Shown here piece by piece: positions 11,968 through 46,333 of a stretch of 64,000 nt of DNA. Source of the DNA: an uncultured Poribacteria bacterium. Its GTDB lineage: Bacteria > Poribacteria > WGA-4E > WGA-3G. How positions within the stretch are numbered: position 1 is the stretch's first letter; every line of letters starts with the position of its first letter. Made by a program: the position numbers and the translations under genes. The stretch spans positions 2,656,001-2,720,000 of the forward strand of contig OX638351.1 in assembly GCA_951813565.1 (NCBI GenBank), in the 5' to 3' direction. The notes beneath the pieces were generated by a model, which had not been told where the DNA came from, made no database searches, and saw nothing but the letters and a program-made list of their open reading frames with translations.

Positions 11968-12384
11968 ATTGCGAAAAAATTTGTCAATCTATAATAGTAG
12001 ATTTTGGAATTACTTGGACACTCTGCACCAGCGAGGTTAGGAAACCTCGCCTACCAGTGTTAATGTCCGAGGCGCAATGAATTGCGCGACTGCAAACACC
12101 ACAAATGCTAAGAAATGTTCACTTAATTTTACGACTTGTGCCAGTTAAGTGAAAGTTTTGTTGTTTTTCACAATTGTTCATATTTTGGAATCAACGCCAA
12201 ATACGCTTTTGGTATTTGGCCGGAGCGATCTCCGAATCGCGACACGTTTGCAGTCGGGAATCGGAGTTCCCTCCTACCTTGAGAACAGCAGCTATCGGAA
12301 AAGTTGCGGAATGCAAACCCAAACAAGAGGAACATGTGAAATATAAATATACCAAATGTTAACTGGCACAACGCGTTAATTTTA

Positions 12385-12605
12385 TAATTCACTATAAACG
12401 TTTTTGAACGCTGTTAACCTTATCTTCCATTGTTTGGGTTCTGTCAATCCGAGTGCCAAATTTGAGTGTAGTTGTAATTCGGGGTGCCCACATCTCATGC
12501 ATTATTTTATGACACCATTTAATCGCATCAAATACTGTATCCTATTTATCTTCAATATTAGTGCCGCAAGCATGGCGTTTCGTCTTTAAGCCTGTTTCTT
12601 TCAAT
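12385..12605 (-). pseudogene. Degenerate copy of the 3' part of the MTH1187-family gene at 14652-14957
   Basis: Collinear DNA similarity, e.g. TTTTTGAACGCT...ATCTTCCAT...TCAATCCG.GTGCCAAA...GTAATTCG, with frameshifts. Confidence 0.75.
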
Positions 12606-12622
12606 AACTTGAGTTTGATAAA

Positions 12623-13045
12623 TAACCCAAGTTGCTACCTACAAAATTTAGACCTACAGACGCCATTTTTAGTAGAGAACAGTTCATTATTCGGAAATAT
12701 CGTAGCGCAAACTTTATGAAGATTAAAAATATATTTCGGTATTTTCTAACCATAGACATCTTGTTTTATGTTTTTCTTGTGTGAGGTTCATTATCTTGTT
12801 GTCTGAATCACGGAAGGCACGGAGAACACTGAGTTCACGGAAGTCCTTTCTATTCATTTATGTTTCTTCTAATCAGAAATAGTAATGAAACGGAAATGCT
12901 TCTGCGTCTTCCGCGTTCTCTGCGCCTTCCGTGATTCAGACAGAAAAGGGATCAGATTACCGAATTAAAAAATTAATCTTCATTCAGTTTGCGTATTCAT
13001 AGGCACAAACTAAAAGTTTATGCTACATAGGTGGCAACTTAGTTA
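12623..13045. mobile_element. MITE family A (TAACCYAAGTTGC ends) carrying a nested MITE (12716-12983) and a long REP-like pair
   Basis: Terminal IRs; the copy at 14391-14562 lacks the internal insert. Confidence 0.75.
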
Positions 13046-13068
13046 TAAATAGTTAAAAAAGAAACGTG

Positions 13069-13110
13069 TAGACCCTGTAGCCACAAGTTCTAAATTGGGC
13101 TACAGGGTCA
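13069..13110 (-). terminator. Probable intrinsic terminator for 13148-14347
   Basis: Stem GACCCTGTAGCC / GGCTACAGGGTC downstream of the stop codon. Confidence 0.55.
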
Positions 13111-13147
13111 GATTTAACATGTTATATCACGTGTTGTATAAAGCCAA

Positions 13148-14347
13148 TTATTTCGCACTTTTCAATTTACCCCAGACGGTGATAAACTTACCTGCTGCTT
13201 CAACACTTTGGTATTCGTCGGAGGGTGTATAGGCAGTTTCTACGGACCCGCGAATACCGACGTGTACTCCCCATCCGCCACCAGCTTCACTGACTTTGAC
13301 CATCAACAAGTTGTTACCCCGTTTCAGATCAACTGTAAACTCATCTTGCCATCTGGATCTTCCACGGTTAACCGCGTTCGTGTGAACGACTTCACCATTG
13401 AGCCAGACTTTGATGGAATCATCACTCCCAACTAACATACTGACACCTTCCATCGCTTCTTCTGCGACAAGTGTAACGAGTCCATAAGCTGTTATGTGGT
13501 CCAAAGCACCTTGTTCTATTCCTGCTTGATTGACAAGAACATTAAGGTCACCGTTGTCAGGCAGATCAGCGAGAGTCCACTCATAATCTCCGACTTTGTC
13601 CCCTTCAGTTGCGCTATTATTAGCCACCCTTTTTTCAGTAACTTTATTATTGCTTGCATCTGCAAGGGAATCGATGTCGGTGGAAGCTGCTCCACCCTGA
13701 CCAGGTTCGGTTGGTGCGATCACCCAAAGCCAATCTGTCAAAATATCTTCTATAGGAACGAAGGGCGTTTCAGAAATACCTACGTGCATGCCCCAACCAC
13801 CACCAGCTTCACTGATTTTGACCATCAAAAAGTTGTCACCTTGTTTCAGATCAATTGCGAACTCATCTTGCCACATGCTCCGTCCACGGTTAACGGCATT
13901 CTTAAAAACGACTTCACCATTCAGCCAGACTTTGATGGAATCATCACTACCGGTTTTCATTGTCGCCTCTTGTGCCTTATCCGATTCGTATGTATAAAGT
14001 GCGTATGAAGTAATGTGATCCAACGCACCTTCCTCCATTCCTGATTGATTGACAACAGTATTGATGTCCCCGTTTGCTGGCAATTCAGCGAGTGTCCACT
14101 CATAATCTCCGACCTCGTCTCCTTCTTTTGCTCCATTTTTAGCCACCATTTCTTCGGTAACTTTGTCATCGCTTGCAACTGCAAGGGAATCGATATCGGT
14201 AGAATTAGCACCACCCTGTCCCGCTTCAGTTTTAGCGATCATCCAAAGCCATGGACCGAGAATTTGATCTTGCGCATCAGCAGTCAGCGTCATCACCGAA
14301 AGACTCATCAGACAAGCCAACGCTATTATACACAATTTTCTGAACAT
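13148..14347 (-). CDS. Secreted protein with two tandem jelly-roll (PA14-like) repeats and a conserved C-terminal motif
   Basis: Signal peptide; duplicated GSDDSIKVWLNGEVV...LMVK.SEAGGGWG; ends VEAAGKFITVWGKLKSAK. Confidence 0.8.
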   Translation of the reverse strand: MFRKLCIIALACLMSLSVMTLTADAQDQILGPWLWMIAKTEAGQGGANSTDIDSLAVASDDKVTEEMVAKNGAKEGDEVGDYEWTLAELPANGDINTVVNQSGMEEGALDHITSYALYTYESDKAQEATMKTGSDDSIKVWLNGEVVFKNAVNRGRSMWQDEFAIDLKQGDNFLMVKISEAGGGWGMHVGISETPFVPIEDILTDWLWVIAPTEPGQGGAASTDIDSLADASNNKVTEKRVANNSATEGDKVGDYEWTLADLPDNGDLNVLVNQAGIEQGALDHITAYGLVTLVAEEAMEGVSMLVGSDDSIKVWLNGEVVHTNAVNRGRSRWQDEFTVDLKRGNNLLMVKVSEAGGGWGVHVGIRGSVETAYTPSDEYQSVEAAGKFITVWGKLKSAK

Positions 14348-14390
14348 TAAATAACCTCCTATATAATTTTGTAGTAATTCTTAAGTATTC

Positions 14391-14562
14391 TAACCCAAGT
14401 TGCTACCTATAAGATTTTTGGCACACAGACACCATTTTTAACAGACACCATTTTTAATAGAGAACAGTTCGTTATTGGTGAAATATTGTAGCGCAAACTT
14501 TTAGTTTGTGGACTAATATGCGCAAACTAAAAGTTTGTGCTACTATGTGGCAACTTAGGTTA
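14391..14562. mobile_element. MITE family A copy
   Basis: TAACCCAAGTTGC ... GCAACTTAGGTTA terminal IRs with an internal REP pair. Confidence 0.75.
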
Positions 14563-14651
14563 TTTCATAGTAAAATGTAAATAATATTACATTCTATATC
14601 ATTTTAGCAGCATGTCAATAAAAGTCAAGGATAGTTTGATAAAAATTCTTG

Positions 14652-14957
14652 TCATTCTATTATGAACTGTTTTTGAACGCTATCAATTTTATCTTCCATC
14701 GTTTGGTTTCTATCAATCCGCGTGCCAAACTTTAGCGTTGTCGTAATTCGAGGCGCGCCCATCTCGTGCACTACCTCATGACACCTTCTTATGGCATCAA
14801 ACACGGCACTCCATTCACCTTCAATGTTGGTGCCGTAAGCGTGAAGTTTTGTCTTTAAACCTGCTGCTTTCAACACATTTTCACATGCGGTGACATATTT
14901 TGAGACAGATACGCCGACACCGATCGGAACAACACACAGATCAGCAATAACTTTCAT
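14652..14957 (-). CDS. MTH1187/YkoF-like thiamine-binding protein family
   Basis: ADLCVVPIG..SVSKYV, HAYGTNIEGEW, GTRIDR. Confidence 0.88.
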   Translation of the reverse strand: MKVIADLCVVPIGVGVSVSKYVTACENVLKAAGLKTKLHAYGTNIEGEWSAVFDAIRRCHEVVHEMGAPRITTTLKFGTRIDRNQTMEDKIDSVQKQFIIE

Positions 14958-14967
14958 GTGTTTCTCT

Positions 14968-15906
14968 CTAATTCTCGCGTAGTTTTTCCAGAATAGCGGT
15001 AGGTAGCGGCGCTGCGTCAGAGGTCGCGATACCGTCGTCAACTTGCGCGGGAGACATCATGCCCGGAATAACACAACAGACTGCCGAATGTGCTAAAATA
15101 AATTTTAAGGCGGCTTGCGGCAGGCTTCGTGCTTTATCGCCAATGATTGATTTAATCTGTTCAACCTGTTCTAAATCAGTGAGAAATTTCTCACGGGGCC
15201 ACGTTTTCCGATAATCGTTTTCAGCAAATTCTGTGTCTGCATTGAGTTGTCCTGAAAGTAAACCTGACGACAGTGGTTGACGCGCCACAACTGCGATCCC
15301 ATTTTCAGCAGCTGTTTTCATTACAGGTTTTGACATATCTTGATTGAGGATGTTATACGTTAGCATTAAGGAGGAAATACCGGTTTCAGCTATTGCCTTA
15401 AGTGCCTGCTCTTCATTTCCGAGACATAACCCATAAAAGCGAATTTTTCCTTCGGTTTTGAGTTCTTCCATTGTGCCGAATGCTTCGTCCCACACTTCTG
15501 CTGGCGGTGGTCCGTGAAATTGATAGATGTCTATCGCATCCTTTTTCAATCGTGTAAGACTACCTTCAACTGCTTGACGGATATAATCTCGGGAAGCATT
15601 GAACGCGGGAACTGTCCCGCCTTGACTAATCCAACCATCGGAGTCCAATTCATATCCGAGTTTCGTTGCGATGATAATTCTGTCACCGAGCACTGAAAAA
15701 GCTTCACCTAAGAAACGTTCCGCACGTCCGCCACCGTATTGGTCAGCGGTATCGTAAAAGGTTACACCTTTTTCAAAAGCGTATTGAAGGAGATCAACAG
15801 CCTCTTTTTCGCCTATGTCTCCCCATTCACGTCCCCCGAGTTCCCATGTTCCCATGCCGATTTCGGAGACGGTCAAACCCGTTTTTCCAAATTTGCGCTG
15901 TCGCAT
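14968..15906 (-). CDS. Aldo/keto reductase
   Basis: VSEIGMGTW, DTADQYGGG, IATKLG, IDIYQFH. Confidence 0.92.
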   Translation of the reverse strand: MRQRKFGKTGLTVSEIGMGTWELGGREWGDIGEKEAVDLLQYAFEKGVTFYDTADQYGGGRAERFLGEAFSVLGDRIIIATKLGYELDSDGWISQGGTVPAFNASRDYIRQAVEGSLTRLKKDAIDIYQFHGPPPAEVWDEAFGTMEELKTEGKIRFYGLCLGNEEQALKAIAETGISSLMLTYNILNQDMSKPVMKTAAENGIAVVARQPLSSGLLSGQLNADTEFAENDYRKTWPREKFLTDLEQVEQIKSIIGDKARSLPQAALKFILAHSAVCCVIPGMMSPAQVDDGIATSDAAPLPTAILEKLREN

Positions 15907-15984
15907 CAGTTTCTCCCACGTGGACTTGCTCCAATTTTACAAAATTTGGGTAATTTTGTCAATGATTAAATTTGCATTGTACAC

Positions 15985-16197
15985 GGGTGTGTAAAGTTTT
16001 TGTAGAAACCCGCACAACTCCTATTGTAGGGGCGGGTCTCCGGGGAATGCCAAAAGGCATTCGGACCGTTGATTTGGTGCCTGCCCGCTGCATGGCACGT
16101 CCTGCGCAGTGGCGGGGCACAGGGACCCCGCTCTACAGTGGAAAACGCCGCGTAATCATTGCAAATTGAACCTATGTAACCAAATATTTACACACCC
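15985..16197. mobile_element. MITE family B (GGGTGTGTAAA ends) with 9-bp target duplication
   Basis: ATTGTACAC on both sides (15976-15984, 16198-16206). Confidence 0.88.
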
Positions 16198-16314
16198 ATT
16201 GTACACAATTACATTGACACATCATTCCTGTTTCTGATAGGATATAGTTGTTCAAGTGCCAAAGAAATGCCTCTAACGCGCATTAAATAGATTAAAAACG
16301 CTCATAGATATTTT

Positions 16315-16661
16315 ACTATAGTTTGGGCAATTCTTGTCTCGTGGAAATTAAGTTTCAACGGAAAATCTATTTTCTACGAGTTTCGCATATCAGTGAAACA
16401 CAGCGAAAATACCGCACTCCAGCGGAGTGCTATGTCTATAGAAAATGGCACGTATCTTGCGCTCCAGCGGAGTGCTATGTGTTGGAAATCACGTACCGCT
16501 CCGCTGGAGCGGAGGGACGGTTCATCATGTGGCTATAAACATATTGCTCCGCTGGAGCAAAGAGGGTTTCTGTTTTGTTTGTCTTGTGTTGATTTAGCAA
16601 TATAAGTCGTGGGCCAATTTCTTATATCAACTCAAGTTTGAAAAATTGTCCAAACTATAGT
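16315..16661. mobile_element. MITE with ACTATAGTTTGG ends containing four CTCCAGCGGAG hairpins
   Basis: IRs ACTATAGTTTGGGCAATT / AATTGTCCAAACTATAGT; ATATTTT duplicated on both flanks. Confidence 0.78.
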
Positions 16662-16678
16662 ATATTTTAGGGACATAC

Positions 16679-17719
16679 ATGAAATTATTGGTCACTGGTG
16701 GTGCTGGATTTATCGGCACAAATTTTATTCGATACTGGCTCAAGGAGTATCCGAAAGATGTTGTGATTAACCTTGATCGGTTGACTTATGCTGGAAATCT
16801 TACAAACCTGACAGATATTGTCTTAGCTTATTCTGATCGATATGTTTTTGCGCATGGCGATATTCTGGATGACGTATTCGTTTCAGAACTTATAGAAACA
16901 CATCAACCTGATGTGATTGTGAATTTTGCGGCGGAATCACACAATAGTCGTGCAATTTTGCAGCCGCGCCAATTCTTTGAAACAAACGTGATCGGGACAC
17001 AAGTTTTATTGGATGCTGCTCGGCAATACGGCGTGTCTCGGTTTCACCATATCTCAACTTGTGAGGTCTACGGCGAACTGGAATTGGACTCACTCGATGC
17101 TTTCGCTGAAACCGCACCTTACCGACCACAGACCCCTTACAACGCATCAAAAGCAGCAGCAGACCATCTCGTAAACGCATATTTCCATAGCTTTGGACTA
17201 CCGATAACCATTTCTAATTGTTCCAATAATTATGGTGCATATCAGCACCCTGAGAAGTTGATTCCGCTTTTCACAACAAATGCTATGCAGGATTTGCCTC
17301 TGACGCTCTACCGTAGCAGTCACAACTGCAGAGAATGGCTACATGTTGATGACCATTGCCGTGCGATTGCCTCGGTAATCTACAACGGAAAAATTGGAGA
17401 AACATATAACATCGGCAGCGGTGTTGAAAAAAGTATTGAAGAGATTACCGATTTTATCTTAGATACGCTTGGTAAACCGCAACACCTGAAAACTTATGTG
17501 CCTGACAGACCCGGACATGATTGTCGGTATCTCTTGGATTCAGAAAAGATTGCTCGTGAACTCGGTTGGAAGCCTGAAATACCGTTTGAGAAAGGCATGC
17601 GGCAAACAATTCAGTGGTATGTCGAAAATCGGGAATGGTGGGAGAAAATACAGCAGAACGCAGATAAGGAAGTAGTACAAGAAGATAAATGGGACACGTT
17701 CTCTCAAGAAAAAAGGTGA
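16679..17719 (+). CDS. rfbB: dTDP-glucose 4,6-dehydratase
   Basis: VTGGAGFIG, LTYAGNL, FAAESH, YNASKAA, NCSNNYG..QHPEKLIP, DRPGHD. Confidence 0.92.
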   Translation: MKLLVTGGAGFIGTNFIRYWLKEYPKDVVINLDRLTYAGNLTNLTDIVLAYSDRYVFAHGDILDDVFVSELIETHQPDVIVNFAAESHNSRAILQPRQFFETNVIGTQVLLDAARQYGVSRFHHISTCEVYGELELDSLDAFAETAPYRPQTPYNASKAAADHLVNAYFHSFGLPITISNCSNNYGAYQHPEKLIPLFTTNAMQDLPLTLYRSSHNCREWLHVDDHCRAIASVIYNGKIGETYNIGSGVEKSIEEITDFILDTLGKPQHLKTYVPDRPGHDCRYLLDSEKIARELGWKPEIPFEKGMRQTIQWYVENREWWEKIQQNADKEVVQEDKWDTFSQEKR

Positions 17720-17724
17720 GATGT

Positions 17725-18693
17725 ATGAGATTGACAGACAACCAACTTGCAACTTGGAAACGTGACGGAATCATCGTTGTGCCGAACGTTTTTTCACATG
17801 AGGCAGTTTCTTCTGCGCTGGAAGCAGTTGAGCAAAACGCTTATGATGGTTTATCCTACGCGGAATATCGCGCAAAATGGGATGACCAACCTGATGAACT
17901 TGAAAGGGCTTATGAAAAAAATGATCCTATGAATCGACTCGCGGGTCCCTTTGGTAAAGTTTCGCACTTTCCAACAGGGTTAGAAGCAGTGGACAAACTT
18001 ATCGAAAATGAAACCTATCTGGGGATTGCGCAGCAGTTGTTAGGCACAGAAGAAATCCGGATCAGCTATGGGCAAATTTTTCTGAGAGAAGGGTTAACGG
18101 ATAAACGCTACAGTGAGCATCCTTGGCAAGGGTATCACATTGACAATGGCACGAATGCAGCGTTGCCGCCGCATCCTGATTGGCAACGTTACGGATATAT
18201 TCTATGCAGCATTATGCTGCACGATGTTGATTTGGACGGTGCCCCGATGCTTATCTGTCCGGGTTCACAAGACCAATTGGATATGATATGGGAAAAACAT
18301 CCCGGCAGTGCGGGTGGACTCGGCATTCCTGACTTGCGTGAGTTTAAGGAATTGGCAGAACCTGTTCCTCTCATAGCGAAAGCGGGGAGTGCTATTTATC
18401 GGTCAAGTTATATAGTTCATGCTGCACAACCGTTTGCGAACAGAAGTAAACAGCGGGTATGGATGGGATATCACTTCCATCGTGCTGACAATGCTGGCTG
18501 GTGTTTAACAACACGACCTACCCCACGGTCAAGTCCACATTATATGAATTTTATCACACAAACAACGCCCTCGGTGAGACGAGTGTTAGGTTGGCCTGCG
18601 CCTGGCGATCCCTACTACACATCCCAAGCCTTAGATCGTTTAGCGCAAGCGTATCCTGAAATTGATTTAGAACCTTATCAAAAGAGTGCTTAG
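17725..18693 (+). CDS. PhyH-family dioxygenase
   Basis: YHID motif, LHDVDLDGAPMLICPGS, VHAA. Confidence 0.8.
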   Translation: MRLTDNQLATWKRDGIIVVPNVFSHEAVSSALEAVEQNAYDGLSYAEYRAKWDDQPDELERAYEKNDPMNRLAGPFGKVSHFPTGLEAVDKLIENETYLGIAQQLLGTEEIRISYGQIFLREGLTDKRYSEHPWQGYHIDNGTNAALPPHPDWQRYGYILCSIMLHDVDLDGAPMLICPGSQDQLDMIWEKHPGSAGGLGIPDLREFKELAEPVPLIAKAGSAIYRSSYIVHAAQPFANRSKQRVWMGYHFHRADNAGWCLTTRPTPRSSPHYMNFITQTTPSVRRVLGWPAPGDPYYTSQALDRLAQAYPEIDLEPYQKSA

Positions 18694-18694
18694 G

Positions 18695-19405: not shown

Positions 19406-19425
19406 AGATTTCTCCTTGAGAGATT

Positions 19426-19773: not shown

Positions 19774-19803
19774 GGGATGGGATAACGTTAATTGTCAAAT
19801 ATT

Positions 19804-20254: not shown

Positions 20255-21061
20255 TACCAATTCTAAAATACAATGTCCCATTTAACATACTACAGTCTAT
20301 CTCATAAATCGTTAAATACGGTTCCTTACACAGGTTCTACATTCATTGTAGGGGCGGGTCCCTGTGCCCGCCCATTGTTTCCACTTATGAGAGAGATGGC
20401 GAGGCACCAAATCAACGGTCCGAATGCCTTATGGCATTCCCCGGGACCTCGCCCTACAAATGATTTATGAGATACGCTCTATAATAGACATTATAATGAT
20501 TTAATCTGCGTTGTGTTGTCAGAATCGCGGATTATCGCAGATTTATCGGATGACGCGGATTTTAAGAACTTTGTATCCGCACATTCAACGGACGCATGCA
20601 CGCCTTCTGTTATTGACCGGACATTATGAAAACGACTTGTTGTTACCAGTATCCAATAATCCGTGCCATCTGCGTCATCCGATAAATCCGCGATTCAGAA
20701 AGTTGCGCGCGATGCCTCATCTACCCAACGGACAAACATAAGATTTTTCCGTGGACCAATAACTCACAATTATAGTAAAAATCACAATTACCTTTACATT
20801 TGCGAGGTTAGGAAACCTCGCCAGCGCAAGCGTGTGGGGATTGCTGTTCATTGAAATGTGAACATATTTTCGGATTTTACTATAAAACGTTATAATGTCT
20901 AATTTAATGGAATATCAACAGAAGAAAGAATGTCCGAGGCGACAAGTCATGGCGAATACCACACGCGTATTCGCCCAAGTGCGCTTGGCGTTGATTTGGC
21001 AATGAATTGCGCGACTACGAACGCGTTTTTGTTAATGAGAAGCTATTATTTAGAAATGGTA
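20255..21061. mobile_element. Composite MITE (TACCAA...TGGTA ends, TAA duplication) holding nested MITEs at 20291-20481 and 20770-20885 plus REP-like pairs
   Basis: IRs TACCAATTCTAAAATA / TTATTTAGAAATGGTA; inner IR pairs read directly. Confidence 0.7.
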
Positions 21062-21114
21062 TAATATCCCACACCACCAATGAATGATCTTAGCAAGATG
21101 GAAAGAAATATTCA

Positions 21115-22785: not shown

Positions 22786-22807
22786 TTTTTACATTCCTCC
22801 TTTATTA

Positions 22808-22963: not shown

Positions 22964-23119
22964 TTATAGTGGATTTTACAATTAACTGGACATTGTCACT
23001 CGGCACGGACAAAGTGTTCTACAGTTTTAAAGTCGCGACCTGCGAATCAACGCCAAATCAAGAAATCAACGCTACAAATCATGGCGAATGCCATACGCGC
23101 ATTCGTCTTGAGGCATTTG

Positions 23120-23289
23120 GCCAAATCAACGCTGAATACGCTTTTGGTATTCAGCCAAATCAACGCTGAATACGCTTTTGGTATTCAGCCAAATCAACGC
23201 TGAATACGCTTTTGGTATTCAGCCAAATCAACGCTGAATACGCTTTTGGTATTCAGCCAAATCAACGCTGAATACGCTTTTGGTATTCA
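23120..23289 (+). repeat. Perfect 34-bp tandem repeat x5 (GCCAAATCAACGCTGAATACGCTTTTGGTATTCA)
   Basis: Five identical units with no spacers. Confidence 0.95.
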
Positions 23290-23499
23290 GCGGGTATGAA
23301 TGCCTTTTGACATTCCCCGTATGGCATTTGTCGGGTCGCTCCTACAGGAAGAGGCGCAATGAATTGCGCGACTACAAACGCCGCTAACCTAAAGAAAATG
23401 TCCAGGTATTTTTAGATTTTACTGTAATTCAACTATTGCAGATGTCTGTTTTATGGGATTGTCAAACCATAAGTCATAATTTGTGTGAGTTCTTACACA

Positions 23500-24360: not shown

Positions 24361-24484
24361 CTCCCATCTCCTTTGGAACATTTGTTTTCTTATTTCCACA
24401 GTCAATCTTCTTGAAACAGATGTCCTCAAACTTTAAGGTATTATGGCAAATTAGCAAAATTTTATCAATTACTTGTTTTGTTTC

Positions 24485-24764
24485 GGGTGTGTAAAGTTTT
24501 TGTAGAAATCCGCACAACTCCTATTGTAACCAAAGTTGCCACCTATTTCGCAAATGCTCTTGTAGGAGGGGTTTCTAACCCCGATTTAGAACAAAAAACA
24601 TAAGAATCAGCGAAAAAGCCTTGTTTTTTCAGTAAAAAGCAGTGTTTGCTAACTTGAAATCTTGTCCGTAGCAACTTAGGTTATTGTAGGGACCCTGCTC
24701 TACAGTGGAAAACGCCGCGTAATCATTGCAAATTGAACCTATGTAACCAAATATTTACACACCC
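24485..24764. mobile_element. MITE family B copy with nested family A MITE (24527-24683, TTG duplicated)
   Basis: Same ends and body as 15985-16197 with an insert at CTATTG/TAGGG. Confidence 0.82.
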
Positions 24765-27235: not shown

Positions 27236-27464
27236 TCTATAGGCGGGTTCGCTTACGCTCAATTTATAAGCGTCAATTTAAGAAAAACCTATCGTAGTGA
27301 ATCAACACCTCATGCACGTCTGGCATTCGGTGGGTAGAACGGAACTGAGAAAGAGGGACTGATAACTAAACTTATCTCAAAACTACCTACTGACACCTAT
27401 CATCAAGGAGGTAGTGAAATCCAACAATGGACTTACTAAAGTCGGGTTTCGCTTCGCTCTACCC

Positions 27465-27795
27465 ATAGGTGTCAACTTAAGCACAAAATGCTGGATTATC
27501 TCTTGTGGGAGGGAGACCTTGTCCGCCCGATTTTTGAGATTTAAACAGGTAAATCCAAATCAACGATGAATGCGCCAAATCAAGAAATCAACGGTATGAA
27601 TCATGGCGAATCATGTAGAATACCAAAAGCGTATTCTACCAAGCGCATTCGTCTTTAGTCATTCACCGGGTATGAATGCCATTTAGGCATTCCCCGTATG
27701 GCATGCTGCGGGGTTGAAAACCCGCCAAATGCCAAAAAGCGCATTTGACGTTGATTCACTCCCACAAGAGGATATATTCTTAAATTGACGCCTAT
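27465..27795. mobile_element. MITE with 17-bp IRs and a 21-bp target duplication of a REP-like hairpin
   Basis: ATAGGTGTCAACTTAAG / CTTAAATTGACGCCTAT; flanks GGGTTTCGCTTCGCTCTA(C/T)CC. Confidence 0.82.
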
Positions 27796-27948: not shown

Positions 27949-28037
27949 TACCAAATTACCCTAAATCGTAGGGGCGGGTCTCTGTGCCCGCCCTTACCAT
28001 CGGCAATGAAAACAATGCAATTCTCGTTAATTTGGTA
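27949..28037. mobile_element. Short MITE (TACCAAATTA ends, TAA duplication) inside the tnpB promoter
   Basis: Perfect 10-bp IR, contains one REP hairpin. Confidence 0.75.
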
Positions 28038-28103: not shown

Positions 28104-29216
28104 ATGAGAAAATCTCACAAGTTCAAACTTCAACACCAATCTAACACAATCAAACTCGGCAATATGCTTGATGATATGTGGGAAATCCATCTACATATCA
28201 TGCGTTTGGCACGTAGGTATTATCGCATGTTCGGCAAAAATTTGTCTGCGTATCGTCTGAAGGCACATGTTGCGAAACTCAAAAAAACAACTAAACCACA
28301 CTGGGCGGACTTGCCGAGTCAAGTTGTTCAAGACGTTGTCCTACGTTATGGTAAATCTCAAGACGCTTTCTTTGAGAATATCGAAGACCGAAAAGCGGGC
28401 AAAACAACGCGTAAAGTGGGTAGACCGAAAATCAAACCGAGACACAAATACAACTCCATGACCTTCACACAAGCGGGCTACAAACTTGAAGATAACCGTA
28501 TCAAAATCAACTGTATAGATACATGGTTTTCCTTTCATAAACACCGTGAAATCAAAGGGCTAATCAAGACGATCACGATCAAACGTGACAGGTGCGGTGA
28601 CTATTGGATATGCTTTTCGTGCGAGAATGTTGAGGATTCCGAACCCAAACCCAAGACGGGTAAGAGCGCAGGATTTGATTACGGAAACAAAACATTCCTC
28701 ACAAGCGACGAAGGGGACACAATAGAATCCCCGCAGTTTTTCAAACAATCACTCAACACGTTGCGATCTCTCAACAAAGCACTCAGTCGTAAAGTCAAAG
28801 GTTCTAACAACTATTATCGTGCGTGCCGTGCTTTAGCAAGGCAACACAGAAAAGTTGCCCGACAAAGAGAAGATTGGCAATGGAAACTTGCCTCAAAACT
28901 TTGTGTAGAGTTTGACACACTCATTTTGGAAACGCTGAACCTTGACGGTATGAAACGATTATGGGGGCGTAAAGTTTCTGACCATTCTTTCTACCAGTTT
29001 CTTCAGATATTGGAACAGAAGTGTGCGAAGCACGGCAAAAAACTTGTGCAAATCTCGCAATGGATAGCAACAACAAAACCTTGTAGTGATTGTGGATACC
29101 ATAACAAAGAACTCTCTCTCGCAGATAGACAGTGGACATGTCCCGAATGTGGTTCACACCACGACAGAGACATCAATGCTGCTATCAATATCAAACAGGC
29201 AGGCTTGGCTGCCTAA
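28104..29216 (+). CDS. tnpB: RNA-guided endonuclease TnpB
   Basis: RuvC residues GFDYG, ILETL, DRDINAA; zinc ribbon CSDCG/CPECG. Confidence 0.93.
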   Translation: MRKSHKFKLQHQSNTIKLGNMLDDMWEIHLHIMRLARRYYRMFGKNLSAYRLKAHVAKLKKTTKPHWADLPSQVVQDVVLRYGKSQDAFFENIEDRKAGKTTRKVGRPKIKPRHKYNSMTFTQAGYKLEDNRIKINCIDTWFSFHKHREIKGLIKTITIKRDRCGDYWICFSCENVEDSEPKPKTGKSAGFDYGNKTFLTSDEGDTIESPQFFKQSLNTLRSLNKALSRKVKGSNNYYRACRALARQHRKVARQREDWQWKLASKLCVEFDTLILETLNLDGMKRLWGRKVSDHSFYQFLQILEQKCAKHGKKLVQISQWIATTKPCSDCGYHNKELSLADRQWTCPECGSHHDRDINAAINIKQAGLAA

Positions 29217-29328
29217 AGTGGAGCGACAATAAGACGGTGGACGCTAAGCGAAAACCGCAGTCGCAAGGAAGCACAAGCCCCTACCTTTAGGTAGTGGGTA
29301 CCTATGACAACATAATAAGGAGAGAAAA

Positions 29329-39497: not shown

Positions 39498-39547
39498 ACA
39501 TATTTTCAGATAACCTTCAATTGGAAGATTCAAGGTTACAAACTCAA

Positions 39548-39619
39548 AATAGGGTGCCCATAAGAAGTTTACTTATATCCCTGAGTTTTACTTCTTGGCT
39601 TATGGGCGTTCCTATTTTA
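39548..39619 (+). terminator. Long hairpin between the two amt genes, probable terminator
   Basis: AAAATAGGGTGCCCATAAG / CTTATGGGCGTTCCTATTTT. Confidence 0.55.
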
Positions 39620-39663
39620 CTGTTTGTATGGCGTTATCTTGTTTTGCCGTTGATTGTAATCAC

Positions 39664-39692
39664 TTGAAACCTTAATGTTATTCTGATAGAAT
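39664..39692 (+). promoter_or_regulatory. Sigma70-type promoter for the second amt
   Basis: TTGAAA-N17-TAGAAT with TG extension. Confidence 0.55.
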
Positions 39693-39852
39693 GCTAAATC
39701 AATACTCGTAGAAGTTAGACCCTTTAAGAAGCGTTAGTAGGACGGATAATTTTTTTCTTCAAATTGAAATTGGAAGGTGGACAAGGTTGTCTACCTTTAT
39801 AGAAAATAACTGAACAAGTACCATCACTTGTTTAATACTAAGGAGGATACAG

Positions 39853-41265
39853 ATGCAACAAAGATGTGCATCGCATTGGACAAGGAAGCGTTTTAGTTAC
39901 GCATTAATTGGAACGCTCATACTATTTTTATTGATATCTGGTGTGTCAAGTCTAATTCTGACACAAGATGTGTTTGCAGACCAGCATGAGACAACTGAAG
40001 TGGAGGCAGAATCATCACTCAATTCCGGTGACACCGCTTGGATGCTAACTTCAACTGCACTCGTGCTGTTTATGACTATTCCGGGACTCGCGCTCTTCTA
40101 CGGGGGACTTGTGCGCGTACAGAATGTACTCTCTGTGCTCATGCAGTGTTTCGCATTGACAGGGATTATCACAATCTTATGGATTATTATTGGGTATAGT
40201 CTTGCTTTTAACACCGCTGGCATGGTGAAAGGGACAATTACATTCAACTCTTTTGTTGGAGGACTCGGTACATTTTTCTTGACAGGTATCGGCGTAGAGA
40301 GTTTATACGACGACAATATTCCCGAAACAGTTTTTGTTACCTTCCAGTTGACGTTTGCGATTATCACACCGGCACTGATAGCCGGGGCATTCGCTGAACG
40401 GATGAAGTTCTCTGCGATGTTGATTTTCTCTGCAATCTGGTCGTTAATTGTTTATGCTCCTATATGCCACATGGCATGGGCAAACGCCGGCGTTGGTGGT
40501 GCCTTATTTGGTGATATTATCGGTGCCCTTGATTTCGCTGGCGGAACCGTTGTGCATATTAACGCAGGGATCGCGGCATTAGTTGCTGCTATATTGGTTG
40601 GAAAACGACTCGGTTACCAGACAACAGCGATGCCACCACATAGTTTGACGCTAACTGTCGTCGGGGCATCAATGCTTTGGGTCGGCTGGTTCGGTTTCAA
40701 CGCCGGTAGTGCTGTTGCTGCTGATGGTACTGCAGGTATGGCGATGCTCGTGACGCAGATTTCGACTGCTACTGCTGCTGTCACATGGATGTTCATTGAA
40801 TGGGGCAAACACGGCAAACCGAGTGCCTTAGGTATTGTTACAGGTGCTGTTGGAGGATTAGTTGCAATTACACCTGCTTCAGGCACAGTTGGTCCGATTG
40901 GTGCGCTTGTTATCGGATTCGTCTCCGGTGCTGTCTGTTTCTGGGGTGCAACAAGTTTAAAAGCGAAACTCGGTTATGACGATTCGCTTGATGCGTTTGG
41001 TGTTCACGGAATCGGTGGAATTGTCGGTGCCTTGTTGACAGGTGTTTTTTCGGCTACAGTTTTAGGTGGTTCTGAAGATATAATGATTGGAAGTCAGCTC
41101 TGGGCACAGTTCCTTAGCATTGTTATCACTATTGTTTGGAGTGGTGTGCTTTCGTTCATAATCCTTAAAATCGTTGATGCAATAGTCGGTTTACGCGTTG
41201 AAGAGGACGATGAACGCATGGGTCTTGACCTCTCACAGCACAACGAACGTGGTTATAACCTCTAA
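39853..41265 (+). CDS. amtB: Ammonium transporter AmtB
   Basis: GDTAWML, PGLALFYGGLVR, DFAGGTVVHINAG, YDDSLDAFGVHG. Confidence 0.95.
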   Translation: MQQRCASHWTRKRFSYALIGTLILFLLISGVSSLILTQDVFADQHETTEVEAESSLNSGDTAWMLTSTALVLFMTIPGLALFYGGLVRVQNVLSVLMQCFALTGIITILWIIIGYSLAFNTAGMVKGTITFNSFVGGLGTFFLTGIGVESLYDDNIPETVFVTFQLTFAIITPALIAGAFAERMKFSAMLIFSAIWSLIVYAPICHMAWANAGVGGALFGDIIGALDFAGGTVVHINAGIAALVAAILVGKRLGYQTTAMPPHSLTLTVVGASMLWVGWFGFNAGSAVAADGTAGMAMLVTQISTATAAVTWMFIEWGKHGKPSALGIVTGAVGGLVAITPASGTVGPIGALVIGFVSGAVCFWGATSLKAKLGYDDSLDAFGVHGIGGIVGALLTGVFSATVLGGSEDIMIGSQLWAQFLSIVITIVWSGVLSFIILKIVDAIVGLRVEEDDERMGLDLSQHNERGYNL

Positions 41266-41364
41266 ACGAGGTAAAATTCCTAACAAGAATAGGCGCGCTT
41301 ATAAAGCGCGCCTACAAATAGATAGAGGCAGGCGGGAAATTCTGTCTGTCCAATTTTTACCAGA

Positions 41365-43374
41365 TTATAACTCAGCTATCCTTCCTGCTATTTCCGCGTC
41401 TGACATAATTTCGTTTCTCACAAGCAGATGTTGTTCTGCCCCAATATTCTGATACACCTCTTCAATCCACGCGGTATTAAAAGCATCACCGGTGTTGTGG
41501 ATAATAAGATTTCGTGGTGCTACAAGTGTCCCCGCAGTACGGAAATCACCTACTTTGCGCAGACTTGGAATCGGTAAAGTTTTCAAATAAGCTTCATCGT
41601 TACCATTATCAAATTGTGCCGCATCCACGACGACGTTTTTGATATTCGTGAATCCCGCTGCAAGCAATGCCCATAAACCTGCTTCACCTATTCCGATTAA
41701 GCTGACTTCTGAAACATCACCTCTGGTTGAGAAATACAGCAACGTTGTCAAAATATCCTGCGCGCGTAATGCCGCAGTTGTGCGGTTGTAGGTGGTGAAA
41801 AAGTTTGTATTCTCCGACCTCTCATACTCACCATGTTCCCCTGTTCCAAACACATCAATAATGAGAACTTTACGATCAGAACTTACCAAATCAGTTATAA
41901 TTGGCAAAGGTTTACCCGTCTCCAAATCTATTAACTTTTCTTTCCCTTCAGGATGCACGATGACAACGACAGGGTCATGTCCTACAAGTGGTTCTGTCCG
42001 AAATAGAACGGCAGGAATAGCGTCTCCGATACCTTTTCTACCAATAACAACGTGCTGCGCAGAATAGTGTGTCTGATAGGTTGTTGGAAAAGCACCTTCT
42101 GGCTCAACAAGGGTTACCTCACTGCTGTTAGGTAAGTGCAATCCAAGTGAATGTTGCAAGGCACTACTCATCTCCTCCGTAAACTTCTGATGCTCAGCTT
42201 CATTTGTCGGTTTACGTTTTTCAATCGTATCTTGGGAATGTTTTACCCAAGCGGGCAGAATTTCGTCCTGTTTCAGTGCATGTGCAGGCATATCACGATC
42301 AGAAAAAACTAACAATGCTTCATCCGATTCGACCTCATAAGACACCTCTTTGAACGCAGACGTATCCGCTGCCCCCAAAAGCCATTTTGCAAACCATGCA
42401 TATACTGCCTCGCGGCTCTCCTTATTGTAGTTATGTTCAGCATCTACCTGAACCTGATGCACTTTGTCTGCTGCATCAAAGTGAGCATAGATGCTTCGGA
42501 TAGCGGGATATTCAACCGTTGGTGTTTTCACTGTCCAATCACCCGTGCATGAAACAAGCAGAAGTGGACGCGGTGCCATCAACGCCCCAATTTCAAGGTT
42601 GCTTGCTTCCAACCGCAAATTCGGTGCGTTTTCGCATAGACAACCGCCCTGCATCGTTGCAGAAATCATATTGACAGGCGCGGAAACCTTGATACGTTCG
42701 TCAACTGCTGTCAAAATAAAGGTTTGCGTTCCACCACCCGACGCACCTGTGCAACCGATGCGTTCTTTATCAACATCTGGTAGGTTTTGCAAGAAATCAA
42801 TGGCACGAATGCCGTTTTGAAGTTGGAGTCCCATCGCGCTCAAACCCCAAAGACCTTCTCGCGCACCACCAAAACGGTGTTCTATCTGTTTGCCACTATC
42901 ATTGTAGCCTATCATATCATAGGCAAAGATAACGTAACCCTGTTTAGCGAAATTGATACAACGGGCAGGAATCGAACCACGTTCTATATCTTCTAACCTG
43001 CCATGTTCCCAATGCCCATGAGGACTTACAATACCCGGAAACGGACCAGTTTTCCCTTTTGGACGGTAGAGATTTCCCGTAGTAAAGAAGCCGGGAAAAG
43101 GTTCAAAATGGACCTTTTCTACGGTGTAATCTTCATGTTCAATTTTTCCAAAGATTTGCGCGTTGAGTGGAGTCGGTTCTTGCGTTGGGAGCAAACCGTT
43201 TGCAACACGAATCTGTTGGCGTAATGCGGCAGCTTTTTCAGTCCATTCTGCTTTGGTGTAGTTTGGAAAAGTGTACGGTGTGTTGAGGTCGCGTGAAGCA
43301 GCACCCCGTGCATCGTTAACTGTTTGTGATGATTCAGTAAATACATGAGCAAGTTCGTGGTGTTGTTCAGCCAT
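41365..43374 (-). CDS. Acetylxylan esterase-like alpha/beta hydrolase with two hydrolase-type domains
   Basis: PHGHW, GCTGASGGGTQT, GGCLCEN, APRPLL, HNYN. Confidence 0.82.
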   Translation of the reverse strand: MAEQHHELAHVFTESSQTVNDARGAASRDLNTPYTFPNYTKAEWTEKAAALRQQIRVANGLLPTQEPTPLNAQIFGKIEHEDYTVEKVHFEPFPGFFTTGNLYRPKGKTGPFPGIVSPHGHWEHGRLEDIERGSIPARCINFAKQGYVIFAYDMIGYNDSGKQIEHRFGGAREGLWGLSAMGLQLQNGIRAIDFLQNLPDVDKERIGCTGASGGGTQTFILTAVDERIKVSAPVNMISATMQGGCLCENAPNLRLEASNLEIGALMAPRPLLLVSCTGDWTVKTPTVEYPAIRSIYAHFDAADKVHQVQVDAEHNYNKESREAVYAWFAKWLLGAADTSAFKEVSYEVESDEALLVFSDRDMPAHALKQDEILPAWVKHSQDTIEKRKPTNEAEHQKFTEEMSSALQHSLGLHLPNSSEVTLVEPEGAFPTTYQTHYSAQHVVIGRKGIGDAIPAVLFRTEPLVGHDPVVVIVHPEGKEKLIDLETGKPLPIITDLVSSDRKVLIIDVFGTGEHGEYERSENTNFFTTYNRTTAALRAQDILTTLLYFSTRGDVSEVSLIGIGEAGLWALLAAGFTNIKNVVVDAAQFDNGNDEAYLKTLPIPSLRKVGDFRTAGTLVAPRNLIIHNTGDAFNTAWIEEVYQNIGAEQHLLVRNEIMSDAEIAGRIAEL

Positions 43375-44059
43375 TATTTATTGCCTCCAAGTGCTTCGCA
43401 ACGATAAACTTCAAAAGTCGGACGATATGTTCCGCATCCCATATTCCGTTGTATACTGGTGAAAATTCAAGTGTGAAGGTTGGTTTTTCGGTTTCAATGT
43501 CGCTGACGGCACCGCGAACGAACGCCCAGCTGTCATTGACGGTGTAACATCCAAAAATTTCTTGTTCTGTTACGGAATCAGGGTTGACGGCTGTTTCACT
43601 GCTTTTTTGCCAAGTGAGCCACGCAGCGGCGAGCATTTCCCCGTAGAGTTGGAATTGGGGTTCGGGTGCCTGAATGCCGCGTTTTGCCCCGTGTACGATA
43701 AGATAAGGTGGACGTATCTGCCCGCCGAGCGCGGGGGCGAGTGCACCATCTGCTTCACCTTCCAATTTAAACGTAGGGTAGATAGCTTTGAGCGGTACGC
43801 TGCTCCATGCTTGAATATGTTCCCGTTCTGCAAGCATCAACATTGGATAAATCGCGCGTGCCCAGAGCGTCGTCTCGTTCATGACGACCAGATGACGACG
43901 GTACAGGGTCGATTTGATATCTTCAAGCCGTCTGCACTCCTCTGCAGTGAGGGCTATTTGCATTTTCTCCCATTTTTCTGGAGAAATATACTTTTCGTTC
44001 AATGTTACAAGTGTCTTAAGTATTTCTTCTGTAAGTTGCGAGAATATATATGTGTCCAT
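43367..44059 (-). CDS. Hypothetical protein with restriction endonuclease-like (PD-(D/E)XK) pattern
   Basis: GEADG...IVHGAKRG...QLYGEMLAA...FGCYTV..W.F. Confidence 0.55.
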   Translation of the reverse strand: MDTYIFSQLTEEILKTLVTLNEKYISPEKWEKMQIALTAEECRRLEDIKSTLYRRHLVVMNETTLWARAIYPMLMLAEREHIQAWSSVPLKAIYPTFKLEGEADGALAPALGGQIRPPYLIVHGAKRGIQAPEPQFQLYGEMLAAAWLTWQKSSETAVNPDSVTEQEIFGCYTVNDSWAFVRGAVSDIETEKPTFTLEFSPVYNGIWDAEHIVRLLKFIVAKHLEAINNG

Positions 44060-44237
44060 CGTTCAAAACCTATATTGCATTAGTTTGTAGGTCAAGGAGA
44101 ACTTTGCGATATCCGCTAAATCATGCCGAATCCTGGGAATGCTACATTGCATTTTCTTTAATACGCGCACGCTGCGGATTTCGCTGTGCTCAACCCGACC
44201 TAAAAGCTGTTTATACTAAAAACAGTGTGAAAGCACA

Positions 44238-44795
44238 TCAGGGAACTACTTTTCCATCCTTATAGATTTTTCGGGAAACCTCTTGTCCGTTTTCGTCCCA
44301 TTCGATCCACAGACCTTCCTGTTCATTGTTTTTATAGGTGCCTTCCTGCTCTTTCTGACCATTGTCATGCCACAAGGTCGACAGACCCTCTCGCTTTCCG
44401 TTTTTTATGGTACCTTTCTTCCTAATTTGCCCATGGTCACTGTGCCACTCAATATAAATTCCGTTCACTTTACCATGTTGAACCTGAATAAGAATCGGAC
44501 CATCAAAAAGCTCTGTTTTTACCCACCCGGTATAAGGTTGTTCCTGATTAGGCGCATAACCTAACTCTTCTCCTGACGGTGATTTTCGAGTTTGTAGGTT
44601 ATCTGCGTCTATAGCTTCAGCGAGAATTTTCTCGCGAACTTTCGGATCATCCCAGTTCGGCTCCCCGCTGCAACCGACAAGTAACGTGAGTGCTAAACAA
44701 AAGGTTATGACCAATTTCATCACTTTCCATACACTATGCATATTTATCACAGACTCTGCGGTCTGCCTTTTTTCTATGATATATTGATTAACCAT
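44238..44795 (-). CDS. Lipoprotein with MORN-variant/YwqK-like repeats
   Basis: LVGC lipobox; KNGKREGLSTLWHDNGQKEQEGTY. Confidence 0.78.
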   Translation of the reverse strand: MVNQYIIEKRQTAESVINMHSVWKVMKLVITFCLALTLLVGCSGEPNWDDPKVREKILAEAIDADNLQTRKSPSGEELGYAPNQEQPYTGWVKTELFDGPILIQVQHGKVNGIYIEWHSDHGQIRKKGTIKNGKREGLSTLWHDNGQKEQEGTYKNNEQEGLWIEWDENGQEVSRKIYKDGKVVP

Positions 44796-44853
44796 TCTTC
44801 TCCTCCATGAGTAAGGGTATTGCCTGACACGGCAAGCAATACCCTCCAAGATT

Positions 44854-45516
44854 TTATGAATTTGAAGTTGTTTCCTCAGTCGAATCTGAGGTAACTTCCT
44901 CAGTTGATAAAGTCGTTTCAATCTTCCTGAGATTGGTTGCCATATCTACAAATAGATTGATTAACTCCGCTATGAAATAGTGGGTAATCAATAATATTGC
45001 CCCACTGAGAACAGACGTAACTAACGAGATCACTCCTATGATAAAACTGACATTCATCCATTGGTCGCTCAGGAAAAATGCCAGAATACCAGGAAATCCA
45101 GAACCGAAAATTGAAGACACTAATCCTTGAATACCTATTCCAACGAGTGAGAGGAATCCTACTTCGCCAAACAATCGAATTAGGATCACTGCAATTGGTA
45201 TCAAAGTGAGATGTGACTCCTCGCCAAGCGCGCGGATTTTATTGGCTCTGTTCCAAAACAACATGGTGAGGACTGCCCCAACAATAAGGTTGATGCAAAG
45301 CACCAAAATTGATCCAATTACGGCAAGTGTCTGAGGGCCTGTTCCCATAAAGTTTCTCGCAGCTATTGAACCAATCAAGATCATAATACCCCATACAATC
45401 GCACCAATCAAAGTAAGCAAGCCCAGAATCTTGAGAAGAATTGATACCCACTTCCGAAATTGGCTTCCGGATTCAAACGAAGCAATCCAATTTACAATAC
45501 TACGTAAAAAGTTCAT
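44854..45516 (-). CDS. Hypothetical membrane protein
   Basis: Several TM helices; ELINLFVDMATNLRKI. Confidence 0.7.
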   Translation of the reverse strand: MNFLRSIVNWIASFESGSQFRKWVSILLKILGLLTLIGAIVWGIMILIGSIAARNFMGTGPQTLAVIGSILVLCINLIVGAVLTMLFWNRANKIRALGEESHLTLIPIAVILIRLFGEVGFLSLVGIGIQGLVSSIFGSGFPGILAFFLSDQWMNVSFIIGVISLVTSVLSGAILLITHYFIAELINLFVDMATNLRKIETTLSTEEVTSDSTEETTSNS

Positions 45517-45636
45517 AAAGTACCCCCTAAAGATGTCAAGGTTTTGTGTGGAATAGTATATCAAATTTCAAGATTATTCTCAATTAATTTAGTTTTATGA
45601 ATTGCCAGTTGACAAGTATTACTGAAAGTTTATATC

Positions 45637-45713
45637 GTCCGTCGGGTAGAGCGTTTTCGAAACCCGATACGTTTAGTCATTGTCGGGTGTTGCAAGCTCT
45701 ACCCGACGGACAA
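45637..45713. repeat. Inverted REP-like doublet
   Basis: GTCCGTCGGGTAGAGC ... GCTCTACCCGACGGAC. Confidence 0.7.
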
Positions 45714-45787
45714 TGCTATTATAGAATATTAACATTTGTGATAAAATGTGCCCGAAAAACCGAAAGCTAAATAACCTTGTATTCTCA

Positions 45788-46333
45788 GGGTGTATAAATA
45801 TTTTGTCACCAGGACTTACGCAAAATGAGCAGAAAAAGGAAATATTGGACTTAAAAAGCCGTAATTTCGGTATTTTATCTCCCCATACGCTATCGCTATG
45901 GGGGCCCGCCCCCTAAATCCCCCTTATCAGAGGACTTTAAGAAAAGGTGCGTAAGTCCTGGTCACTTACTTATTCACGGATTACGCGGATTCTGTAGGAA
46001 CGACCTCGAATTAACGCCAAATGTGCTTGGCAGCATACGCGTATGGTATGCTGCATTCAGTGGGTCGCGACCTGGAGGTCGCTCCTACAAAAAGAAATCG
46101 GGCGGACAAAGCCCTCCAACAAGAGATAATCCAGCATTTTTTCTTAAGTTTACACCCGCAGCATGCCATACGGGAATGCCATAAGGCATTCATATCCGGT
46201 GAATGACTAAAGACGAATGCGCCAAATCAACGGTATGAATGCCCTTTGGCATTCCCCGGGACCCCGCCCTACAGTGGAAAACGCCGCGTAATCATTGCAA
46301 ATTGAACCTATGTAACCAAATATTTACACACCC
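45788..46333. mobile_element. Family B composite MITE with nested elements
   Basis: GGGTGTATAAA ... TTTACACACCC; right-hand 60 bp identical to other family B copies. Confidence 0.72.
45810..45960. mobile_element. 151-bp MITE with IS701 ends
   Basis: CAGGACTTACGCA ... TGCGTAAGTCCTG; 5-bp duplication GTCAC. Confidence 0.9.

Follow-up and report, generated by a model that had tools for sequence, protein, structure and literature searches.

Single-hairpin units of 34-36 nt, mobile at least in the past, in genomes of Poribacteria

The stretch of DNA analysed here (the window, 64 kb) covers positions 2,656,001 to 2,720,000 of contig OX638351.1 (assembly GCA_951813565.1), a single 5.43-Mb contig that represents the genome of an uncultured Poribacteria bacterium (G000). 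It carries repetitive extragenic palindromes (REPs), repeats resembling MITEs (miniature transposable elements bounded by inverted repeats) and, inserted in a number of these, copies of a hairpin unit of 34-36 nt. The analysis described below shows that these units form a real, non-autonomous family that was mobile at least in the past. A first-pass annotation of the window had proposed a family of this kind; when its consensus was used as a pattern, the window gave 10 matches, whereas none of 200 dinucleotide shuffles gave any (mean and maximum both 0). Every site it had listed proved to hold an intact, nested or decayed copy, with the exception of 44115, where only AATCATG without a family hairpin is found.

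The units of the window and of the genome

Read from its tag, the unit has the layout (N)R-AATCAA followed by a bulged hairpin of 10 bp that starts with C and ends with a terminal G. The terminal G pairs with the C of AAC, as DNA folding puts this C opposite the base after the stem. The tetranucleotide located 5' of the hairpin is TCAA before the 10-bp stem, or CAAC if the stem is counted as 9 bp. The variable head consists of 1-2 bases, which in the 433 strict copies of the genome are CA (278), TG (61), GG (38), TA (19), GA (15), CG (13) or others (9). Two classes were distinguished: class 1 units have an inner stem of 9 bp and a loop region of 7-8 nt that contains an unpaired G, and class 2 units have a bulge of 2-3 nt close to the stem base. 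The tag is invariant and stem positions 3, 4 and 8 vary with pairing preserved. In the 22 class 1 stems that occur two or more times, the pair at position 3 is C-G in 16 and T-A in 5, position 4 is A-T in 14 and G-C in 8, and position 8 is G-C in 15 and A-T in 4 (counts given without a shuffle control). The hairpin may act as a protein-binding site and the tag as a cut or stop signal. A minor variant, termed CAT-type, has the hairpin reversed relative to the tag; it accounts for 91 of 493 copies in a looser genome scan and is exemplified in the window at 20948-20975, 23080-23107 and 27602-27654. Its targets are only the family's own stems, with 2-4 bases lost, a rule unlike that of the main class. 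Double-tagged palindromes are restricted to 14 in the genome, 2 of which are not family-like.

The units and the empty host REPs of the window are as follows.

12188..12221, + strand: class 1 unit whose head is G, placed at the GTAG end of a GTAGGAGCGATCTCC REP; its stem is followed by C, not G
15985..16197, unstranded: MITE-like host repeat GGGTGTGTAAA...TTTACACACCC with a 9-bp target duplication ATTGTACAC; the 16041 unit is its cargo
16041..16076, - strand: class 2 (bulged-stem) unit headed by CA, inserted in the loop of a GTAGGGGCGGGTCTC-type REP
20408..20443, + strand: class 2 unit with a CA head in a GTAGGGCGAGGTC-type REP
20940..20998, - strand: composite, a class 1 unit inserted between ATTGC and GCCTC of a GTAGTCGCGCAAT REP and holding a CAT-type unit (20948-20975)
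23043..23333, + strand: nested stack in a GTCGCGACC...GGTCGCTCCTAC REP, comprising an outer class 1 unit, a double-tag unit, a CAT-type unit, a tandem run and a class 2 remnant
23122..23292, + strand: five identical 34-nt class 1 units, head to tail, ending in the terminal G
27298..27332, + strand: decayed class 1 unit
27556..27710, + strand: large nested composite between ATC and GGGGTT of a AACCCCGAT REP, comprising an outer class 1 unit, a double tag, a class 2 unit and two CAT-type units
27723..27758, - strand: class 1 unit with a TG head in the other arm of the AACCCCGAT REP
46008..46062, + strand: decayed nested unit with tag AATTAAC
46159..46258, + strand: composite fragments and after them, at 46223-46258, an intact class 2 unit, fused to the 3' portion of the MITE-like repeat
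12069..12090, unstranded: empty host REP GAGGCGCAATGAATTGCGCGAC, with a second copy at 23352-23373
20348..20373, + strand: empty host REP GTAGGGGCGGGTC(C/T)CTGTGCCCGCCC, with a second copy at 27968-27993
24562..24587, + strand: empty host REP GTAGGAGGGGTTTCTAACCCCGATTT

The empty REPs were found at the positions given by the first-pass annotation, and its observation that the 16042 and 20407 copies are one loop base apart was confirmed. As the two REP variants concerned carry the unit many times (10 and 6 copies in the matching contexts), these two insertions need not be independent hits.

In the whole genome, the 433 strict intact copies divide into 281 of class 1 and 152 of class 2, and 982 family tags are grouped in 503 clusters. 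A hairpin of 9 bp follows 600 of the 15,085 heads of the form AAT[CT]A(A[CT]|T), and 25-91 sites for each of five control heads (7,804-13,066 sites). Only 6 of the 433 intact copies lie wholly within open reading frames (ORFs) of at least 150 aa, though such ORFs make up 78% of the genome. The majority of copies sit in repeats, low-copy flanks on both sides being present for only 26 of the 433, and the 433 copies collapse to 195 short contexts.

The general pattern was detected in all 30 genomes of the genus, with 3-364 copies each, and in 33 of 38 genomes of the sister genus. Elsewhere it was found in 1 of 5 genomes from three small genera of the family and in 1 of 47 genomes of other families, and a reversed control gave 0. 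When a genome collection was scanned with one unit, 78 of the 80 matches listed were assigned to Candidatus Poribacteria and 2 to 'uncultured bacterium'; with a second unit, all 80 matches listed were from Poribacteria. The dominant stems differ between genomes. Viral contigs gave 0 matches, so that carriage by phages is not supported.

Insertion sites and past mobility

For 223 of the 433 copies, the genome holds a paralogous site that lacks the unit and matches over 30 or more bases on either side. Four orthologous sites were filled in some genomes and empty in others, three of them in frame inside genes. First, a 36-nt unit is inserted in frame between GTC and GGA of a gene that we take to be a member of the lipoate-ligase family; it is present in 3 of 30 genomes and absent from 27. 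Second, two genes carry a unit of net 33 nt close to their start, one in 5 of 6 genomes and the other in 2 of 6. Third, a 35-nt intergenic unit is present in 1 of 2 genomes. The two 33-nt sites and the 35-nt site were the informative ones among six extra sites searched; no alignable orthologue was found for sites L360 and L361, and site L366 is an old shared insertion. At a larger scale, the intergenic stretch 20260-21100 is 841 bases long here, 31-51 bases in 8 of the 9 relatives with both anchors and 208 bases in the ninth. Within the species, among contigs of runs X8 and X9 (from two studies), one contig joins 15974 directly to 16197, with the whole 222-base MITE and its 16041 unit missing, and contigs of X3 and X4 extend into the 15985 MITE; this evidence covers absence of the whole MITE, not polymorphism of the unit alone. 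Contig joints that skip only 16036-16077 were not counted because their sides are short (26-27 bases) and they may stem from paralogous REPs.

These data bear on the view that most copies are passive: a small number of old insertions would have gained copies by riding on REPs and MITEs and through tandem slippage, the unit itself being no longer mobile. The collapse to 195 contexts is in keeping with it, as are the fact that 16 of 33 copies of one composite reside in one host, the absence of the whole 222-base MITE rather than of the unit alone from conspecific contigs, and the sharing of unique-site insertions between species, which indicates that they are old. However, passive copying accounts for copy number and not for origin: the unique genic sites needed real insertion, the dominant stems differ and the copy numbers range from 3 to 364. 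We consider this view unlikely.

To define the insertion rule, junctions of all head types were collected together with those of the relatives. The 488 distinct sites included 146 with an empty allele, which gave 122 junction classes; 38 of these were dropped as the two bases to the right of the junction mismatched, leaving 84 with a matching right side. CA heads taken by themselves have C before and G after the unit at 80 of 90 distinct non-tandem sites. A G follows the stem at 132 of 143 distinct non-tandem sites, and GG continues in 80 of these 132 compared with 4.3% in flanks. In 39 of the 84 classes, this G replaces an A, T or C of the host. When the terminal G was counted as part of the unit, the number of host bases lost was 1 in 50 classes, 2 in 14, 0 in 4 and at least 3 in 16, some of these larger losses reflecting flank polymorphism. 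The hairpin-side junction is sharp and lies 5' of GG. The tag-side junction is ragged: the unit takes the place of about 1 host base (0-3), and microhomology there amounts to 1-2 nt. The initial description of the junction, an insert that follows C and starts with G without duplication and with 0-2 bases lost, was accurate for the lack of duplication and for the C and G of CA heads; it has to be amended in that the terminal G is often not of host origin, one base is typically replaced and the site lies 5' of GG. Because the terminal G often replaces a host base, an insertion looks precise between C and G when the host base that it replaces happens to be G. A test for covariation between the base preceding the insert and the first base of the stem gave no support.

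Insertion is not confined to REP loops as had been supposed. Units were found in REP loops, in stem bases, in the GTAG tag, in genes of these sponge-symbiont bacteria, and in the unit's own loop, own tag and own 3' end. Insertion at the unit's own 3' end recreates the target, hence the head-to-tail stacks. The notion that the units parasitise REPs applies to most copies, which lie in repeats; unique intergenic and coding sites are targeted as well. Self-insertion occurs, and composites move with cargo in the loop: there are 122 double-tag units in 59 contexts, and one composite with 33 copies is found in 14 left contexts. As composites and double tags recur in many contexts, the ends and not the length define the unit; as 16 of the 33 composite copies share one host, block copying with REPs inflates the counts.

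Combined, these results uphold the proposal of units smaller than REPINs (REP doublets) and MITEs that insert without target duplication in many hosts and vary in presence among relatives. The units are not part of one fixed repeat, nor are they the ends of any IS605/TnpB element of the genome. They rank among the smallest mobile DNAs and are likely to be pasted as a single strand by an enzyme.

Candidate mechanisms and the search for an enzyme

The presence of a fixed tag beside a bulged hairpin, with one sharp and one ragged end, leads us to favour, tentatively and at somewhat less than even confidence, a model in which an HUH (Y1)-type nicking enzyme, supplied in trans, moves the units in the form of folded single strands through a one-ended transfer closed by host repair. 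On the strand reading CC, C-hairpin, GTTGATT, YN, a nick after CC would create a 5'-phosphotyrosine end at the foot of the hairpin. This end would join precisely to a target 3'-OH located after CC, and the tag end would be closed by host repair with removal of the base carrying the adduct. Beyond the unit anatomy and the junction counts, we infer every one of these steps. The leading candidate is a borrowed RAYT (REP-associated tyrosine transposase), for the sole reason that most copies lie in or near REPs, where RAYTs nick single strands. In the sections of PMC8266576 that deal with their activity, RAYTs read bulged hairpins preceded by a fixed short motif on single strands, their 5'-phosphotyrosine link can be resolved by a free 3'-OH oligonucleotide, and a GTGG guide shifted cutting to CC. 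The CC on the opposite strand of our junctions would fit a guide of the GTGG type.

A broader version of this scheme is possible though rather doubtful: the units might constitute a self-contained class of mobile DNA of about 35 nt, in which a nickase, borrowed or so far unrecognised, joins the foot of the hairpin precisely at CC/GG, the tag end is left to host repair, the target is recreated with each insertion and cargo is carried in the loop. This would amount to a minimal cargo-carrying insertion system without a dedicated transposase gene.

The genome was searched for the enzyme. Its Y1 genes comprise five IS605-type tnpA loci, three RAYT loci above the NCBIfam cut-off and two further Y1 loci; one of the three RAYT loci and one of the last two contain a stop. 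The ends and REPs of these loci bear no relation to the unit. Intact genes include RAYT-type ones at 242023-242496, about 5070800-5071330 and 3097995-3098471, and an IS605 TnpA gene at 228389-228808. No additional Y1 gene was detected by tblastn with the Y1 frames of relatives, which gave only tnpA remnants and repeat-derived matches, and a scan of the genome for the HUH motif returned 9 frames, all in known Y1 loci. Unit copies near Y1 genes are located inside the ordinary REPs of the RAYT or hundreds of bases away. Y1 genes are present in 36 of 40 genomes of the genus, and each RAYT type has its own GTAG-type or other REP. More generally, Poribacteria contain many RAYT types, often several per genome, each with its own GTAG/GTGG or short GC-rich REP.

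Several results weigh against a transfer by an HUH enzyme. None of the 10 Y1 loci of G000, nor of the 46 of 54 non-IS605-type loci of relatives that have an HUH frame, has the unit as its own flanking repeat. The L010-type RAYT occurs in only 16 of 30 genomes of the genus, yet in 7 of 11 and 19 of 29 genomes of families without the unit, and three genomes holding 70, 81 and 97 copies (G001, G010 and G023) have no Y1 match. CT, the usual cut site of RAYTs, precedes only 5 of the 84 junctions. The copies show no leading/lagging-strand bias (232 against 201), and at site L362 the base after the stem is the host's A rather than G in 4 of 5 filled orthologous genomes. Finally, the empty alleles of the junction classes are mostly paralogues and not the true pre-insertion allele, and the classes are related rather than independent. 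The assignment of the mobility to an IS200/IS605 TnpA or a RAYT, as originally suggested, finds no support in any direct test: a Y1 gene flanked by the unit is lacking, the junctions do not obey the guide/cut-site rules, and a Y1 match is missing from three genomes in which 70-97 copies occur.

The part of this suggestion that concerns IS200/IS605 corresponds to a terminal-only PATE (palindrome-associated transposable element), in which fused IS200/IS605 ends are moved by an ordinary TnpA through peel-and-paste. The lack of target duplication and the subterminal hairpin are both features of the unit, and one IS1341-type family of the genome is cut at TCAA at its right end. In IS605 elements, guide sequences pair with the cut sites. 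When this rule was applied, it fitted seven own IS605 end types (AAAT-TTAA, AAAC-TTAG, AAAA-TTAT, GAGA-TCAT, GAAT-TCAA, CAAG-TGAC and GAAG-TCAC) and no junction of the unit. Cross-complementarity for guide pairing is described in the relevant part of PMC8266576, and a precedent for such PATEs exists in Haloquadratum, for which PMC3119063 reports, where it treats them, a 52-bp single-palindrome PATE with six strain-specific insertions. The junctions of the unit, moreover, have no fixed target of 4-5 nt; only the C at -1 (for CA heads) and the downstream GG are conserved, and 1-3 host bases are usually lost. No parent element was identified by eye among the 5 tnpA and 18 tnpB loci of G000 or among 149 unclosed tags, the IS605 ends of relatives being covered in part. 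An origin of the units as PATEs of this type is accordingly quite improbable.

The ragged tag-side junction is also what template switching during host replication or repair might produce. A nascent or nicked strand ending in CC at a REP hairpin would jump to another or a free single-stranded copy, read the hairpin and the tag and return a few bases on, and a host protein binding the hairpin would conserve tag and stem. This is compatible with the small deletions and the 1-2 nt of microhomology at the tag end, with head bases (CA, TG, CG, GA, TA) inherited from earlier flanks, with a GG flank common to donors and targets, and with the existence of copy-rich genomes without any Y1 or reverse transcriptase (RT) match. 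It does not account, however, for hundreds of sites at which copying ended no more than 2 bases from the tag, for the presence of a G where the host has none (39 of 84 classes) or for the restriction of the units to two genera. We regard template switching as a serious but minority possibility.

The same asymmetry, a ragged 5' end and a sharp 3' end at the hairpin base, would suit target-primed reverse transcription of a short RNA with a 5' tag and a 3' cut at the hairpin base, similar to a CRISPR RNA without spacer, onto a nicked target. The genome encodes two RTs, one of them beside cas1 in a type III-like CRISPR locus. Nevertheless, RT (PF00078) was found in 18 of 40 genomes, and the four richest relatives (G034, G006, G017 and G061, 240-364 copies) all gave no match to it, an Rfam search with the unit gave 0 matches, and the tag is unlike the end of the CRISPR repeat of this genome. 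An RNA intermediate therefore appears improbable. The type III-like CRISPR locus lies at 3988991-4009690 of G000, with a stand-alone RT beside cas1 and an array of about 50 repeats, and RT-linked spacer acquisition is possible there. The second RT, of 511 aa, is encoded at 811749-813284 and is presumably of the abortive-infection type.

An autonomous parent and other recombinases were also looked for. From 807 tags with family arms that were traced, 149 did not close within 400 bases; these were nested, decayed or chance tags by eye, and none enclosed a gene. Tags flank 35 of 4,284 ORFs on both sides; these by their first residues (no library scan) are ordinary genes or pseudo-ORFs apart from cas1. 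Among the families listed, one multi-copy ORF family lies near tags in 5 of 5 cases; it is tnpB, and the match is a promoter-region GTTGATT without hairpin. Derivation from IS110/IS1111 was rejected, the DEDD transposase being found in 0 of 40 genomes with a control matched in 6 of 14. An IS91/Helitron-like Y2 transposase was found in 0 of 40 genomes, but the control was also silent. An integron attC cassette was rejected as IntI was found in 0 of 73 genomes of the family (3 matches in another family, control silent) and the junction lies between G and GG, not G and TT. An IS607-type GG core was rejected by reasoning because only one junction has GG. A simple scan of G000 for tyrosine recombinases, by motif only and without a profile, yielded no ORF.

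As for the window itself, the claim that it encodes no candidate enzyme holds for HUH enzymes, with the qualification that it contains a tnpB without an intact tnpA (28104-29216). This IS605-type tnpB, one of 28 similar ORFs, belongs to a locus at 28104-29308 that has only the 3' tail of tnpA upstream and a right end composed of CAAG, a hairpin and TGAC.

Relation to known repeats and neighbouring loci

Mobile repeats of very small size are already on record; the host of the present family is uncultured. Elhai et al. reportedly described in 2008 the small dispersed repeats (SDRs) SDR1-8 of Nostoc, said to be 21-27 nt long, with compensatory stem changes, nesting and gains in orthologous genes. 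The Poribacteria units would share with them a structure preserved through compensatory stem changes, nesting in other repeats, and presence in some and absence from other genomes at orthologous sites. They differ, by description only, in their length of 34-36 nt (against the 21-27 nt said of SDRs), the one-sided tag, the terminal G, the replacement of host bases, the loop cargo and the phylum. Both are very small structured non-coding units inserting at defined steps in other repeats, SDR5 entering precisely between bases 3 and 4 of HIP1 according to the portion of PMC4390886 devoted to it; Nostoc SDRs are also mentioned in a passage of PMC3116915.

In the account that PMC3119063 gives of Haloquadratum walsbyi, terminal-only PATEs (52 bp) are transposase-free, make no target duplication and consist of a single palindrome, and SMR-A/B (80-110 bp) are likewise transposase-free and without target duplication, SMR-A entering palindromes of other mobile elements. 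All of these are features of resemblance. Unlike the PATEs so described, the unit is shorter and has neither a parent IS605 nor a fixed target oligonucleotide; unlike the SMRs, it is shorter and lacks terminal inverted repeats at both ends. With the REP/REPIN-RAYT systems, as presented in parts of PMC3116915 and PMC8266576, it shares a short fixed motif that lies immediately 5' of a bulged hairpin, a copy number in the hundreds with mostly intergenic locations, and tandem clusters. It departs from them by the motif (TCAA/AATCAA, not GTRG), the single hairpin instead of a doublet, the lack of a cognate flanked RAYT and junctions other than CT. Single hairpins were gained at unique sites, so the mobile unit is not a doublet. 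Insertion in frame within genes is known for Rickettsia palindromic elements and intragenic REPs (PMC3733652, in the section concerned). In contrast to the repeats treated there, only a small minority of the present insertions are in frame (net 33 and 36 nt), and the unit nests in itself. Unlike MITEs, it has a one-sided tag, no terminal inverted repeats at both ends and no target duplication. The unit is thus not a member of the REPINs, PATEs, MITEs, IS110 derivatives or attC cassettes, and a literature search, with thin coverage of subscription papers, found no prior description of this family.

On the wider question of how bacterial repeats of less than 50 bases disseminate, the spread of REPs 'remains to be elucidated' in the words of one passage of PMC8266576, and the mobilisation of SMRs is called 'enigmatic' in one of PMC3119063. 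The present family supplies thousands of junctions over more than 60 genomes, with a defined tag and stem and a simple target rule, which allow short oligonucleotide substrates to be designed for direct tests of candidate enzymes. Insertion of the unit occasionally adds 11-12 residues to proteins.

Other repeats of the window were recorded. The MITE-like family GGGTGTGTAAA...TTTACACACCC, with REPs and units as cargo, occupies 15985-16197, 24484-24764, 46257-46333 and 48633-48728. A second MITE-like repeat of about 295-400 bp with TAGACATTATAA ends, present in 11 copies of 96-99% identity, lies at 20478-20900, where it is interrupted by another repeat; contigs from all four runs have joints skipping 20289-20900. 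Outside these regions, a 9-bp tandem repeat (5064-5153) is found at the end of the ORF 4398-5147, and a gene encoding an RHS-repeat/DUF6531 protein (8561-10111) is followed by a 19-bp tandem repeat at 10127-10213.

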